A DNA stretch of 64,000 nucleotides from an uncultured delta proteobacterium (GCA_963745035.1 CAVUVW010000027.1:32001-96000), one strand, 5' to 3'; shown: positions 5,056 to 20,289, numbered from the stretch's first letter. A program made the numbers and translations. The notes: a model not told the origin generated them from the sequence alone.

Positions 5056-6751
5056 ATGGGGAGTCGTTCAATTCCCAATCCCTGATTCTAATCGGCTGTA
5101 CAGCTTTCGTCCTATATCTTGCGGGGATTCCGCTTCTGATGCTGCTTTACGGCAGCATCAGAAGCGCACCCATTGGCGAGCCGGGCGCGACTTACACGAT
5201 TCAGAATTACATCAAGGCGTACTTCGATAAGGAGTTCTATCTCCTTCTTCTCAATTCGGTCTATTACGCCCTCGGCACTTGCACCCTCACGTTTCTCATC
5301 GGGACGTTTCTCGCCTGGGTGAGCGAGCGGACGAACACGCCGTTCAAAAAACTGTTCATCGTCATGTCCTTGATCCCGTTCATTATTCCCGGGATCTTGA
5401 GCACGATTTCGTGGATACTTTTGCTCAGCCCGAAAATCGGCTTGATCAATATTGTCATTAAGGAAGCCTTCGGACTCGAGGCGGCGCCGTTCAACGTCTA
5501 CTCGATGTGGGGAATGATCTGGGCGGAGTCGATTCATCTCTATCCGCTGGTGTTTCTCTTGATGTCGGCGGCTTTCCGCAACATGGATACCTCTTTGGAA
5601 GAGGCGGCCCTCACCGCCGGGTCGAGCACCTGGCAAACTTTTCGGAAGGTGACGCTGCCGCTCATGCGCCCGGCGATGTTCAGCGTGTTGTTGATCAATT
5701 TCATCCGTGGCATCGAGGCTTTCGAAGTGCCGGCGCTGATCGGCGTGCCGGCCAAAATTTCGGTTTTCACCACCAAGATTTTTCTCGCTATTCATCAGTT
5801 TCCGTCCGACTTCGGGCTCGCCGGCGCCTATGCGGTGACGCTTTTGGTGATCAGCACGGTCGGGGTGCTGATTTATGGAAAGATCACGCGCCGGGAAGAA
5901 CGCTACGCAACGGTGACCGGTAAAGGTTATCGGCCGCGGGTGATCGATCTCGGGAGCTGGAAGTACGTCACTCTGGGAATTTCCTTCTTGATATTTTTTT
6001 CTGGCCGTCATCATGCCCGTATTCGTTTTACTCTGGTCATCGTTCATTCCTTACTATGGCGTGCCTTCCATGGAACTGATGCAGAAGATGACCTTTGCCA
6101 ACTATCACTACATCATCAATTATCCGTTGGCGTGGACCGCGTTTAAAAATAGCTTCTATCTGTCCGTGGGCTCCGCGACATTGGTCATGCTGCTGACATC
6201 GGTGATCGCTTGGATCACCGTGAAGACCAAGTTGCCGGGAAGAGGCTTCCTTGACACGATGACTTTTATCCCGATCGCCATGCCCGGGATTGTCTTGGGC
6301 GTGAGCTTGATCTGGGTTTATCTCACTTTGCCCATTCCGATCTATGGAACGATTTGGGTCTTGCTGCTTGGCCTATATGACGAAATACATTCCCTACGGC
6401 ATTCGCGCCGCCTCGGCCTCGATGATTCAGATCAATAAAGAGCTGGAAGAGGCCTCGTTCACCGCCGGTGGAACATGGTTTCAGACTTTTCGGAAAATCA
6501 TTCTGCCGTTGTTGATGCCCGGCTTTACAGCCGGTTGGATCTATATCAGCATCATTGCATTGCGCGAATTGTCCACGTCGATTTTGCTCTATTCATACAA
6601 CAGCACCGTTTTATCGATCATGGCGTTTGATCTTTGGGAAGGCGGCCAGTACACCTATGTCTGCGCTCTGGGCGTGTTGATGGTCTTGCTGCTGGTCAGC
6701 ATGGCTGCCGTCGCGCGCAAGCTCGGCGCCAAAATCGGTATCGCGGAATAA
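5056..6751 (+). CDS. Fe3+/polyamine-type ABC permease with two EAA repeats (frameshifted)
   Basis: AGGAG RBS and ATG at 5056; two LEEAA/LEEAS motifs spread over ORFs 4965..6146, 6013..6438 and 6344..6751. Confidence 0.85.
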
Positions 6752-6817
6752 GATACTCGGTTCTGAGTCTGACCGGTCGCCGCTCTCGTTGCGGCTGCGG
6801 GGTCATCTGGAGGAGAA

Positions 6818-7968
6818 ATGGCAGAAAAAAGAGACATGGTGCAAATCGGCGCGCTGGAGAAATATCTTCGGCGAAGACAAGGAACGCGTCCATGTTCTTA
6901 AGGGAGTGACGCTGAACATTCCCGAGGGATCGCTTTACACGTTTCTTGGCCCGAGCGGCTGCGGCAAGACCACAACGCTCCGCTGCGTGGCCGGTTTGGA
7001 GCGTCCGGACGGCGGCAAGATCAGCATCGGCGGGCAGACCGTTTATGCTTCGGGCGAACGGGTCTACGTGCCGACCAACAAGCGGCCGATCGGGATGGTG
7101 TTCCAATCCTACGCCATCTGGCCGCACATGACGGTGGCGGAAAACGTCGCCTATCCGCTGACCATCCAGCGGAAATCCAAGGACGTGATCAAACGCAGAG
7201 TCGGCGATGTTTTGAAAATCGTCGGGCTAGACGGTTTGGAAGATCGTCCGGCGCCTAAACTGTCCGGCGGGCAGCAGCAACGGGTTGCCTTTGCGCGCGC
7301 TCTGATCAACGAGCCGAAAGTCATGCTGCTCGACGAGCCGTTGAGCAATCTCGACGCCAAATTGCGCGTGCAGATGAGATCCGAGATCAAGGCGCTGCAG
7401 CGCAGAACCAATATTACGACCATCTTCGTCACCCACGACCAGGCGGAGGCGTTGGCCATCTCGGACCAGATTGCGGTCATGCACGGCGGGGTGTTGATCG
7501 AAGTCGGCGCGCCGCATCAGCTTTACTCTCGGCCAACTCGCCGCTTCACCGCGACATTCTTAGGTCTCACCAACTTGATCGACGGCAAGATCGTCGAGCT
7601 CGACGGCGATGGCAAGCCGGGAAAGATCCAAACCAAAAAAGGGCTGCTCTCGTTCATCCCGGCGCCGGGACTGAAGAAAGATCAAGCGGCGGTGATATCG
7701 ATCCGGCCGGAGAACATTCCCCTATACAAGGAGAAACCGCGCGATTTCGGAAAACGTTCTGGAAGGCACGGTCAAGGAAGCGGTTTTCATGGGCGACTCT
7801 TATCAGTGTAAAGTCGCGGTGGGAGATGATCTCCTGGCCGTGCATACTCATCCTTTCAACTCCGTAAGCCCTGGAGACAAAGTTTATTTGCAATTGGATC
7901 CCGCGAGTTGCAACGGCTTGCCGGCGGACGATAAAGAGGGTGTTGATGAATCGATGTTGGGGGACTAG
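6818..7968 (+). CDS. PotA/FbpC-type ABC ATP-binding protein with TOBE domain (frameshifted)
   Basis: GPSGCGKTT, LSGGQQQRVA, DEPLSNLDAKLR and THDQ motifs; GGAG RBS at 6812; C-terminus in another frame ending at TAG 7968. Confidence 0.88.
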
Positions 7969-16383: not shown

Positions 16384-16866
16384 TCATCTTTTTTGGACTC
16401 CAATCAGCGCAAAGAACTCTGTCTCCATGTGATGAAGCGCCTCAGCGTTGCCGTGCTTGAAGTCTCTGAAGGGCTGCCAAAACCGAAATATTCGTGTACG
16501 GCGGAAGGGGCGAAAAACGACGGCGAGCGGATTGAATCGCCGGTAGCCGCCGAAATGATGGAACGCTAGCCGAGCTAGTGAAATGCGCCAGCGCTTACGC
16601 TGCGACCAATTGAGAACAACGGCCCGTTCGCCGATGTACGGAAGAATGTGTTGATCGATATATTCGCGCCAAATGGGGCTTTCGGAGTAGACGAAGAGGA
16701 TGTCACGCCCGCGCAAGCACCACCACATCCAAATGGCGATGTGTAGACAAACCGTTGATACGACAAAGAACAGAAGCGCGACCGTTATAAGGATGATTAT
16801 TACCGGAGCGAAAGAAATGATGAGTGCCAGCTGCCACCATTTGAATTTCGATTCTCGACTCTCCAT
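16384..16866 (-). CDS. Hypothetical membrane-anchored protein (possible thioredoxin-like soluble domain without CxxC)
   Basis: 160 aa; long N-terminal hydrophobic segment, then a beta-alpha-beta-alpha-(Pro)beta-beta-alpha-like pattern judged by eye. Confidence 0.55.
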   Translation of the reverse strand: MESRESKFKWWQLALIISFAPVIIILITVALLFFVVSTVCLHIAIWMWWCLRGRDILFVYSESPIWREYIDQHILPYIGERAVVLNWSQRKRWRISLARLAFHHFGGYRRFNPLAVVFRPFRRTRIFRFWQPFRDFKHGNAEALHHMETEFFALIGVQKR

Positions 16867-16889
16867 GAGCCTGCTGACCAGGTTAACCG

Positions 16890-17420
16890 CTACCGCCGGT
16901 TGTCGTTAGACTCGGGCCGCAGATTGTCGATCGGCTGAATAAGCTGCGTCTCGACATCGTCGGGTATTTCAGCACGGCGCACAATCTTTGGCCATAGCTC
17001 AAGCGGCGGTGCTTTGATCAATGACGCATCGAGCGCGACATCATCAAGATCGTCGTGCAAAAAAGGGCGCTGGCCGCAATGACGGGCATCGCACGAGGCG
17101 CGGATCCCCGGACGGCACTCGCGCCAATGGCAGATGCGGCCGATGTAGTTACCGGACGGATCGGCCAGAAAGATGTCAGCACCTCTATTTTGGCTCTGAG
17201 CGTGTCCTTTCAGTCTTCGACCCGCGGCTGCTAGGTGAGTGAGATCGGCGTCATCATCGACAGTGACCAGCACGTCGGCATCCTTCGGATCGGTTTTGCC
17301 TGTTGTCAGCGAACCGATGAGCGCGATGCGACGAACACCTGGAAAAAATCGAGCATGCTCGACAAACTGCCGGACCTCGGAGAGTAGAACAGTTCGAATT
17401 GTTGACTCGCCGTTTGTCAC
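16890..17420 (-). CDS. Nucleotidyltransferase-domain protein with Cys/His-rich insert
   Basis: Pol-beta/MNT motif RIALIGSLTTGKTDPKDADVLV; CHWREC...CDARHC cluster. Confidence 0.7.
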   Translation of the reverse strand: MTNGESTIRTVLLSEVRQFVEHARFFPGVRRIALIGSLTTGKTDPKDADVLVTVDDDADLTHLAAAGRRLKGHAQSQNRGADIFLADPSGNYIGRICHWRECRPGIRASCDARHCGQRPFLHDDLDDVALDASLIKAPPLELWPKIVRRAEIPDDVETQLIQPIDNLRPESNDNRR

Positions 17421-19127: not shown

Positions 19128-19409
19128 ATGCCGAAAGTGACTTTCATGCCGGCCGGACAGTCCTTTGAAGTGGCGGCGGGCACGACGATCCTGGTTTCGG
19201 CGATCCAGAACGGCTTACAGCTGCGCCACGACTGCACCGAAGCGATTTGCGGCACGGACCGGGTGAAGATCCTGTCCGGTAAAGAACAGCTGAGCGAAAA
19301 GGATGAGAACGAGGAATTGACCCTCGAAATGATGAACGCAGAGCCGGACGACAGGCTGGCTTGCGTCGCGCGGATTATCGGCGACGTGACTGTCCTAGTG
19401 ATCGACTGA
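19128..19409 (+). CDS. [2Fe-2S] ferredoxin (CxxxxCxxD...C)
   Basis: HDCTEAICGTDRVKI...RLAC; starts 3 nt after the IspH-like stop. Confidence 0.88.
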   Translation: MPKVTFMPAGQSFEVAAGTTILVSAIQNGLQLRHDCTEAICGTDRVKILSGKEQLSEKDENEELTLEMMNAEPDDRLACVARIIGDVTVLVID

Positions 19410-19458
19410 ACAACCCAAGGAAAACCGAGAGAGCTTACCGCCCGATTAAGGAGTAGCG

Positions 19459-20013
19459 ATGGCTTACATCAAAACCATCCCGCCTGCAGAGGCGACCGGC
19501 AAGCTCAAAGAGGTTTACAGCGCCAGCAGCGGGCCGTCGGCGGCGCGCGGAAAGGTGGCGATGATTCGCCAGGTACAGAGCTTGAATCCTGACGCTCTTG
19601 CGGCCTGGAGCGCCCTCGGCGCTGAGATCATGCATGGCCGGTCGCGGATCACGCGTCGCCAGCGCGAGATGATCGCCACGGTGGTATCAGCAGCCAATCA
19701 CTGTAGTTATTGAATGACGGCGCACGGGGAGGCTCTCCGTACTGAATCGAACGACGATCCTCTGGTCGAAGGCATCAAGCGGGATTACACCCAGTTGAAT
19801 TTGCCGGCGGCCGAGCGGGCGATGTTGGATTACGCCGTAAAACTGACGGCGGCGCCGTCGAGCGTCGATGAAAGCGACATCAAAAACTTGCGCTCCCACG
19901 GCTTCGACGACCGGGATATTCTAGATATCGTCTACGTGATCTGCCTGTACAATTTTAACGACCGGATGGCGGACGCGACCGGAATCAAAGGGCATGATTT
20001 TCTGGCGGGTTGA
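19459..20013 (+). CDS. AhpD/carboxymuconolactone-decarboxylase-like peroxidase-related protein, probable selenoprotein (UGA=Sec at 19711-19713)
   Basis: ORFs 19459..19713 and 19714..20013 are in the same frame; readthrough gives REMIATVVSAANHCSY-U-MTAHG, matching the family NxCxYCxxxH motif; 184 aa. Confidence 0.85.
19722..19742 (+). promoter_or_regulatory. Candidate bacterial SECIS hairpin
   Basis: ACGGGGA-GGC-TCTCCGT stem-loop (one G-U pair) starting 11 nt after the UGA, with G in the apical loop. Confidence 0.6.
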
Positions 20014-20181: not shown

Positions 20182-20289
20182 ATGATCGAGCTTTATCACA
20201 ATGACATGTCGGTTTGCGCGCAGAAGGTGCGCCGGCTGCATCTTTACGAGGAGAGAGTGTTTTTTAAGTCGTCGCAGAAGTACGCCTAG
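20182..20289 (+). pseudogene. Glutathione S-transferase N-terminal stub
   Basis: MIELYHNDMSVCAQKVR is a typical GST start with a GGAG RBS; similarity stops after about 17 codons. Confidence 0.55.

Follow-up and report, generated by a model that had tools for sequence, protein, structure and literature searches.

In the 64,000-nucleotide stretch of DNA from an uncultured delta proteobacterium analysed here (GCA_963745035.1, CAVUVW010000027.1:32001-96000; hereafter the window), we are highly confident that positions 19459-20013 on the plus strand are one gene for a selenocysteine (Sec)-containing AhpD-like protein of the TIGR01926 'peroxidase-related enzyme'/COG2128 type, whose internal UGA would be decoded by way of a hairpin acting as a selenocysteine insertion sequence (SECIS). 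An original prediction, made from the DNA of the window alone, had proposed a selenoprotein at this place, and this reading is now supported by the Sec machinery of the genome, by the alternation of Cys and UGA at the site and by the conservation of both the TGA and the hairpin among relatives.

The in-frame TGA lies at 19711-19713 (+) and is codon 85, counted from the ATG at 19459. Read through this TGA, 19459-20013 (+) encodes 184 residues and then ends at a terminal TGA at 20011-20013; under translation table 11 it appears as two abutting open reading frames (ORFs) in one frame, 19459..19713 (84 residues) and 19714..20013 (99 residues). The sequence around the site is as had been quoted, AAT CAC TGT AGT TAT TGA ATG ACG GCG CAC, and with TGA as U it translates to the motif C82-S-Y-U85-M-T-A-H89. 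Its three key codons are the TGT of Cys82 (19702..19704, +), which is the first residue of CxxU, the TGA read as Sec85 (19711..19713, +) and the CAC of His89 (19723..19725, +), which completes CxxUxxxH and is the codon used in 15/15 orthologues. The UGA was predicted to stand at the second Cys of a CxxCxxxH motif, and homologues with Cys do align there. A Shine-Dalgarno-like AAGGAG, read from the sequence, is found at 19448..19453 (+), 5 nt upstream of the start codon of the whole gene. Immediately 3' of the internal TGA there is an ATG (19714), and the 15 bases 5' of it contain nothing Shine-Dalgarno-like. The two halves are therefore in frame and the downstream ATG is without such a box, just as the original prediction had it.

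Profiles, solved homologues and a structural model agree in treating 19459..20013 as a single coding sequence. The product scores 142.6 bits with TIGR01926 'peroxidase-related enzyme' (cut-off 81.8), residues 9-176 aligning with positions 8-173 of the 178-position model and spanning the TGA, and 50.2 bits with the Pfam family PF02627 (CMD/AhpD domain; cut-off 23). Two other families were considered and rejected, namely the mycobacterial-type AhpD family TIGR00777 (18.5 bits vs a cut-off of 191.95) and NF041238, AhpD_rel_CFYUT (64.2 bits vs 175). In the Protein Data Bank (PDB), five structures, described as 'uncharacterized peroxidase-related' or AhpD-like, match with expectation values (E) of 4e-32 to 2e-23: 2pfx (E 4e-32), 3c1l, 2prr, 6k40 (E 6.7e-24) and 2oyo. 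The alignments with 2pfx, 3c1l and 2prr cross the TGA without a break and place Cys at its column, within N-K/H-C-x-Y-C-L/V-x-A-H-G. The same column is Cys in 37/37 full-length database homologues (38-52% identity). In an alignment of these with the window product (38 rows), no row departs from His89 or Glu70, and the column of Cys82 is Cys in at least 90%.

The AlphaFold model derived from the homologue alignment is a single, confidently predicted helical domain, with a mean predicted local distance difference test (pLDDT) score of 91.9 and a predicted template-modelling (pTM) score of 0.88, and it places the CxxU motif at the start of the helix 83-97. Its template-modelling (TM) scores to 2pfx (0.84), 2prr, 3c1l and 6k40 are 0.82-0.86 over 167-186 columns. 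Given that the model superposes as a whole on solved structures, the two 'halves' are parts of one fold, with the stop at its catalytic residue. The product is thus predicted to be a single all-helical AhpD-fold domain; by its score, its fold and a CxxC/UxxxH motif with UGA at the second Cys, it belongs at the sequence level to TIGR01926.

To follow the UGA codon through related genomes, a six-frame search was made of 40 relatives and of the window's own genome, with matches accepted at E <= 1e-10. There were 58 matches in 21 of these 41 genomes, and 51 of the 58 contain an in-frame TGA; among the 7 without it, 2 cover only the region downstream of the site. C-x-x-TGA is present at the aligned codon in 16/16 orthologues (68-84% identity, the window included) and in 15/15 paralogues (34-49%), in the forms CSYU, CRFU, CRYU and CFYU. 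If the orthologue L033 and the paralogue L046, both from the unpublished genome G005, are set aside, the counts are 15/15 and 14/14. The Cys/UGA alternation that the original prediction had asked to see is therefore found, with Cys in 37/37 database homologues and TGA in 31/31 related genes. Beyond these relatives only 3 of 150 genomes drawn from the rest of the phylum matched at E <= 1e-20 (5 matches, 4 of them with TGA), and from these searches the gene appears to be concentrated in the window's genus and a sister family and to be rare elsewhere.

Both sides of the TGA evolve under similar constraint. Among 15 orthologues, codons 1-84 have a ratio of nonsynonymous to synonymous substitution rates (dN/dS) of 0.11 and codons 86-180 one of 0.10, with a mean dS of 1.2-1.5. 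One further orthologue, L036 (G024:C96:17211-17756), was left out of the dN/dS and codon-use sets; it has a second TGA and a scrambled stretch of 20 residues at its N-terminus, which suggests a frame error or a decaying copy. At a synonymous divergence this close to saturation, a neutral TGA would have been lost, and the purifying selection on the downstream half shows that this half is not dead. A conserved in-frame UGA, purifying selection on both of its flanks and Cys in distant homologues together form the pattern of a selenoprotein gene.

These results bear directly on whether the TGA is merely a nonsense mutation, or a sequencing or assembly error, in a Cys-type gene, from which an 84-residue fragment or nothing at all would be made. 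The source of the window is a metagenomic bin of 28 contigs (92.6% complete, 5.81% contamination), and the database protein P0003, at 85% identity, has Cys at the site, so that within the group a single step separates TGY from TGA; both facts lend some credit to a broken gene. Against it stand the TGA at the same codon in 31/31 related genes from 18 other genomes at a dS of 1.2-1.5, the dN/dS of 0.10 in the downstream half, and the presence of TGA in contigs from two other runs. A contig of 783 nt from run X1 (record 3, 19136-19918) spans the TGA unchanged and differs from the window only at 19638, and one of 389 nt from run X9 (record 22, 19567-19955) spans it with no difference at all, so that neither has the TGT or TGC that a miscalled Cys codon would give. 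X1 and X9 are public runs from two different studies, of which contigs were compared. Possibly the window itself derives from one of them; a stronger argument for a real TGA comes from the 30 related genes in other assemblies. From a further run, X2, a 35-nt piece over the UGA with 2 differences at unlisted places was not used. Overall, we regard the probability of a broken gene as negligible.

A second alternative is that residues 1-84 and 86-184 are made separately, the latter from the ATG at 19714, and come together in a single AhpD-like fold. In the window this ATG follows the TGA directly, an ATG or GTG is found at that place in 10/16 orthologues, and gene callers yield exactly these two products. 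However, the TGA is followed by ACC or ACG in the remaining 6/16 orthologues and by ACC, ACG or GGC in 15/15 paralogues. Hence, for 21/31 genes a separately initiated second protein is excluded, since no start codon follows the TGA there. The halves also abut at the same codon in 31/31 genes, without the variable gap that two independently started proteins would be expected to have. A break with neither codon shift nor gap in 31 genes, the lack of a Shine-Dalgarno-like box 5' of 19714 and the loss of the catalytic second Cys that such a break would entail, a residue invariant in 37/37 homologues, all speak against two products. We consider a split gene extremely unlikely, and a single gene read through its UGA remains the preferred interpretation.

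The public databases carry the marks of the same stop codon. In a collection of 5.8 billion proteins, the closest entries (58-85% identity) are fragments. Eight close homologues were aligned: three begin after the TGA (P0007, P0008 and P0121), two end before it (P0052 and P0069), two have W at its column (P0002 and P0005) and one has Cys (P0003). Gene callers had been predicted to split this gene in two, and 5/8 of these homologues are indeed cut at the TGA. The W of P0002 and P0005 presumably comes from translation under a code in which TGA is W. The Cys at the Sec column of P0003, at 85% identity, hints at a Sec/Cys exchange within the group. In another entry, P0004 (67% identity), the motif is lost through a local frame problem. 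Cys occupies the Sec column in every full-length entry whose identity is about 50% or lower.

A hairpin follows the UGA within the coding sequence. It occupies 19724..19740 (+), within codons 89-94 (H-G-E-A-L-R), with a 7-bp stem (19724-19730 paired with 19734-19740, 7 pairs including one G-U) and a GGC loop at 19731-19733. A stem-loop 11 nt after the UGA had been predicted, and it does start at the 11th base after the TGA, leaving 10 nt between, in both the minimum free energy and the centroid folds. The same 7-3-7 hairpin is found at the identical distance of 10 nt from the TGA in 31/31 genes. In an ungapped alignment of 30 distinct rows (A1; 210 cells), standard pairs fill 99.0% of the cells, a value reached by 0/500 shuffles, and sliding the 3' partners by 1 to 3 columns lowers the pairing to 24.8-62.9%. 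Two pairs show compensatory change: at 29-39, 20 sequences have G-C and 10 have C-G, and at 32-36, a single sequence has G-C where the other 29 have A-U. Two G-U variants occur at pair 30-38, and one of them is the GGG codon of the window. All 31 genes begin the loop with G (alignment column 33); orthologues have GGC as their loop, most paralogues GTT.

Codon use sets the hairpin apart from the rest of the gene. Among 15 orthologues, with Met, Trp and Sec excluded, 77/78 codons for invariant residues outside the hairpin use more than one synonymous codon, at a mean heterozygosity of 0.452. Among the six hairpin codons, four are single-codon and two have one deviant each, at a heterozygosity of 0.04, and every frozen third position pairs with a second-position base of the opposite arm. 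Given that the codons of the hairpin are frozen at synonymous sites while the others vary, constraint on the protein alone cannot explain it. Judged by comparative analysis, the hairpin therefore has what is expected of a bacterial SECIS, a stem-loop just 3' of the UGA with a G in its apical loop.

The genome also holds the genes for making and inserting Sec, as a search for selA, selB, selC and selD had been called for to establish. A tRNA-Sec is present (76.7 bits vs a gathering score of 47; ARAGORN anticodon tca), and profile searches of the genome found selA (592 bits), selB (347 bits) and selD (385 bits), all above their family cut-offs. The three protein genes are consecutive on contig C17 (315264-319742), with the tRNA-Sec at 371273-371363, about 50 kb beyond. 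The selD gene is itself a selenoprotein gene, with one in-frame TGA in the context ...K-A-A-G-U-A-A-K.... Elsewhere in the order, selA exceeds its cut-off in 38/41 genomes, the 3 without it being 60-93% complete. From this gene content, we conclude that the organism can insert Sec.

It may still be asked whether the UGA is read as a standard amino acid (Trp, Cys or another) through a suppressor tRNA, near-cognate decoding or an alternative code. P0002 and P0005 are translated with W at this column, and Sec and another residue are indistinguishable at the level of sequence analysis. However, TGA is a normal stop here, ending both this gene (20011-20013) and the upstream ferredoxin gene (19407-19409), and the complete Sec pathway is present. 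Moreover, the recoding falls on a column that is otherwise an invariant redox Cys, the classic site of Sec/Cys exchange, and a conserved hairpin at fixed spacing is needed for Sec decoding but not for simple read-through. Incorporation of a standard amino acid is thus very unlikely, and Sec is the residue that would be inserted at this UGA.

Several observations nevertheless weigh against the interpretation of 19459-20013 as a gene with a SECIS-decoded UGA. Folded as a single sequence, the 66-nt stretch has z = +1.26, with 184/200 shuffles at least as stable; since the fold alone is no better than that of shuffles, the significance of the hairpin comes only from the comparison of related genomes. 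In that comparison, mismatches occur in 2/210 cells (L029 and L037b), and the compensatory changes probably amount to just two evolutionary events, one in a single paralogue clade and one in a single sequence. The hairpin also overlaps a conserved peptide, H-G/A-E-A/F-L-R, so that part of its conservation is at the protein level. An Rfam scan of 19600-19900 with E up to 10 gave 0 matches, although such a scan is uninformative for short bacterial SECIS hairpins. The one contig from an RNA library, X15 (247 nt, 19439-19685), ends 5' of the TGA and is maybe carried-over DNA. The Sec genes and the window lie on separate contigs (C17 and C27) of a bin with an estimated 5.81% contamination; yet, as selA is found in 38/41 genomes of the order, the Sec trait is a property of the lineage and not of bin contamination. 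Finally, the fold is shared with other chemistry, for example that of the debrominase Bmp8 (6ohi/6ohj).

In bacterial Sec decoding, Sec is delivered by SelB, which carries GTP and Sec-tRNA(Sec) and attaches to the hairpin when the ribosome meets the UGA. Applied to the window, the UGA at 19711-19713 would be decoded as Sec rather than as a stop when the hairpin at 19724-19740, as a bacterial SECIS, recruits SelB with GTP and Sec-tRNA(Sec), which the selA, selB, selD and tRNA-Sec genes of the genome would supply. The second TGA (20011-20013), which has no hairpin element, would lead to termination. In the protein, Cys82 and Sec85 at the N-terminus of the helix would form a C-x-x-U redox pair, and we infer that His89 and Glu70 are the likely acid-base partners. 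By analogy with the Cys forms, the enzyme would most likely cycle between selenol/thiol and selenenylsulfide, and the cycle would either reduce a hydroperoxide directly or re-reduce a partner peroxidase.

The assignment of this activity and of its substrate draws on DR1765 of Deinococcus radiodurans (6k40). This protein belongs to the same subfamily (E 6.7e-24; TM 0.85 over 186 columns) and has CxxC at the same place, although its second position is Cys, not Sec, and identity in the fold alignment is about 30%. According to a review (PMC8945050), its loss makes D. radiodurans sensitive to H2O2, and the cysteines of CxxC are needed for complementation. By analogy with these genetic results, we infer that the window protein would act as a hydroperoxide or disulfide reductase.

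The same recoding might instead serve another job, with the Cys-Sec pair used for other reductive chemistry, for example dehalogenation of the Bmp8 type, or to supply one neighbouring enzyme specifically with reducing equivalents, the candidate partners being the cupin, the luciferase-like monooxygenase and the LytB-like/ferredoxin proteins. Bmp8 chains do match, 6ohi in the sequence search (E 0.0022) and both 6ohj and 6ohi in the fold comparison (TM 0.77), the orthologue lies between cupin and luciferase-like monooxygenase genes in a related locus (L057) as well as in the window, and no peroxiredoxin gene was found among the 16 surrounding ORFs scanned. On the other hand, the closest solved relatives (E 4e-32 to 2e-23) are of the 'peroxidase-related' group, DR1765, the only member of the group with genetics in the review cited above, protects against H2O2, and Bmp8 is far more distant, at 16-20% identity in the fold alignment. 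Such another job is possible, but we consider it on balance unlikely, and a peroxide- or disulfide-reducing role for the selenoprotein is preferred.

Sec-containing AhpD-like proteins were said at the outset to have been reported before, which agrees with several papers. In Sargasso Sea data, CxxU AhpD-like proteins (COG2128) were described as a new selenoprotein family with 27 sequences (PMC1088965, 2005), and in the Global Ocean Sampling (GOS) data 'AhpD-like 1', represented by 299 selenoproteins and 902 Cys homologues, ranks with the most abundant families (PMC2398784, 2008). An entry 'AhpD-like protein, TIGR01926, CxxU' is listed in a 2026 review (PMC13188914), which gives NF041238 its own entry among selenoprotein families; the AhpD-like family serves as the browsing example in a database paper of the same year (PMC13326102). 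The window gene resembles this family in its TIGR01926 membership, in a CxxU with Sec at the second Cys, in the widespread Cys homologues and in a SECIS just 3' of the UGA. It is thus an addition to a catalogued family and not a new kind of selenoprotein, the family, motif and mechanism being already established. Unlike the Sargasso and GOS members, the window copy is from a soil-type uncultured lineage and not from marine reads, and unlike the catalogued family, its relatives have tandem arrays of several Sec-containing paralogues. A full-text literature search found no paper on selenoproteins of Binatia/Binatota, although the supplementary tables of selenoproteome papers, which lay outside the search, may list members of the lineage.

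Two other AhpD-type families are more remote from the window protein. NF041238 'AhpD_rel_CFYUT' likewise has an AhpD-related domain with C-x-x-U, but it is longer and of a different architecture, and the window protein matches only positions 151-335 of its 357. AhpD of Mycobacterium tuberculosis (1gu9) is of the same superfamily and has CxxCxxxH on a helix N-terminus; however, it belongs to a different family (TIGR00777), and its fold match to the window model is weak (TM 0.43, root-mean-square deviation 9.9). According to PMC8945050, this AhpD is a disulfide reductase for a peroxiredoxin and reportedly a weak peroxidase.

The hairpin can be compared in the same manner. The fdhF gene of E. coli is the paradigm of bacterial SECIS elements. 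Like these elements, the window stem-loop lies in coding sequence shortly 3' of the UGA and has G as its first loop base; unlike the paradigm, its stem is short (7 bp), its loop has 3 nt and there is no conserved lower stem. The G agrees with a figure legend in PMC1088965, which gives a conserved apical-loop G for predicted bacterial SECIS elements.

Outside the recoding device, the selenoprotein gene is preceded on the plus strand by three genes identified with Pfam: a cupin-domain gene (PF07883, 17736..18191) that is conserved in relatives, a LytB-like gene of the IspH family (PF02401, 18234..19124) and, after a 3-nt gap, a 2Fe-2S ferredoxin gene (PF00111, 19128..19409), which ends in the TGA at 19407-19409 and is separated from the AhpD-like gene by 49 nt. 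Cupin homologues (75-87% identity) adjoin AhpD-like genes in the related loci L043/L057, L037, L044 and L050. In the window, the LytB-like and ferredoxin genes are possible operon partners of the selenoprotein gene. A fixed operon with this pair was rejected, as the pair is absent between cupin and AhpD-Sec in L057; no ferredoxin homologue was found by tblastn in the related loci examined, and LytB homologues were found only at the edges of L037 and L044, where they flank the paralogue arrays (98% identity over 54-55 residues).

The best syntenic locus is L057, with the order NMT1-like(-), cupin, AhpD-Sec, luciferase-like and DegT-like. The window has this gene order plus three extras. A DUF6932 gene and an ORF of 160 aa precede the cupin gene, the LytB-like and ferredoxin genes separate the cupin gene from the AhpD-like gene, and the AhpD-like gene is followed by an AAA_18 kinase-like gene that lies on the opposite strand. 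The first of these extras, at 16384-17420 (-), consists of the DUF6932 gene (27.6 bits vs a cut-off of 27) and the adjacent ORF, which has no family; the two have no counterpart in L057 and may be an inserted two-gene module. In L057 itself, the DegT-like aminotransferase gene (5863-6998, G004:C5) matches the window copy in three pieces that overlap on the query, a pattern pointing to a broken gene or to indel errors in that assembly.

Downstream of the selenoprotein gene, a 35-residue ORF (20182-20289) matches no Pfam family. Its first 17 codons (20182-20232) are those of a glutathione S-transferase (GST) gene, 100% identical to the copy in genome G015, after which the similarity ends; in G015, a complete 261-aa GST gene follows the orthologue (L055 6743-7528). 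The remnant marks a place close behind the selenoprotein gene where sequence was deleted or rearranged.

Several sister genomes from the window's genus carry 3-5 AhpD-like genes in tandem, of which 3 or 4 per array have C-x-x-TGA and the hairpin, and in 4/5 arrays one AhpD-like copy is without TGA. These arrays are located at G004:C9:614838-618889, G015:C2:386940-390418 (L055 2441-5919), G018:C41:52652-56221, G019:C16:39713-44655 and G012:C316:3768-7279, and they adjoin cupin, LytB-like, GST and luciferase-like monooxygenase genes. They are a lineage-specific expansion of one selenoprotein family. In the window's own genome, array copies were not found with this query, the bin being 92.6% complete. 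It should also be noted that a second, distant AhpD-family gene of the window's own genome, at G000:C14:324125-324655 (L052, -; 24% identity), has an in-frame TGA within a C-P-Y-U motif.

Taken together, our results leave the general knowledge of selenoproteins unchanged, and their main value lies in annotation: a standard gene caller turns this gene into two meaningless fragments, and the same holds for its close public relatives. The correct reading extends the known proteins of an uncultured soil-associated lineage by a redox selenoprotein. It also provides a clean teaching case of a SECIS inside a coding sequence, with six codons frozen at synonymous sites and the rest of the gene saturated. 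The tandem arrays of the sister genomes are the lead most worth following. That the window gene is the surviving member of a lineage-specific multi-selenoprotein module is a doubtful proposition at present; if, however, the arrays do represent a dedicated Se-dependent redox or detoxification pathway whose substrates are not just simple peroxides but others, they would constitute a new kind of selenoprotein operon, found in a soil lineage still uncultured.

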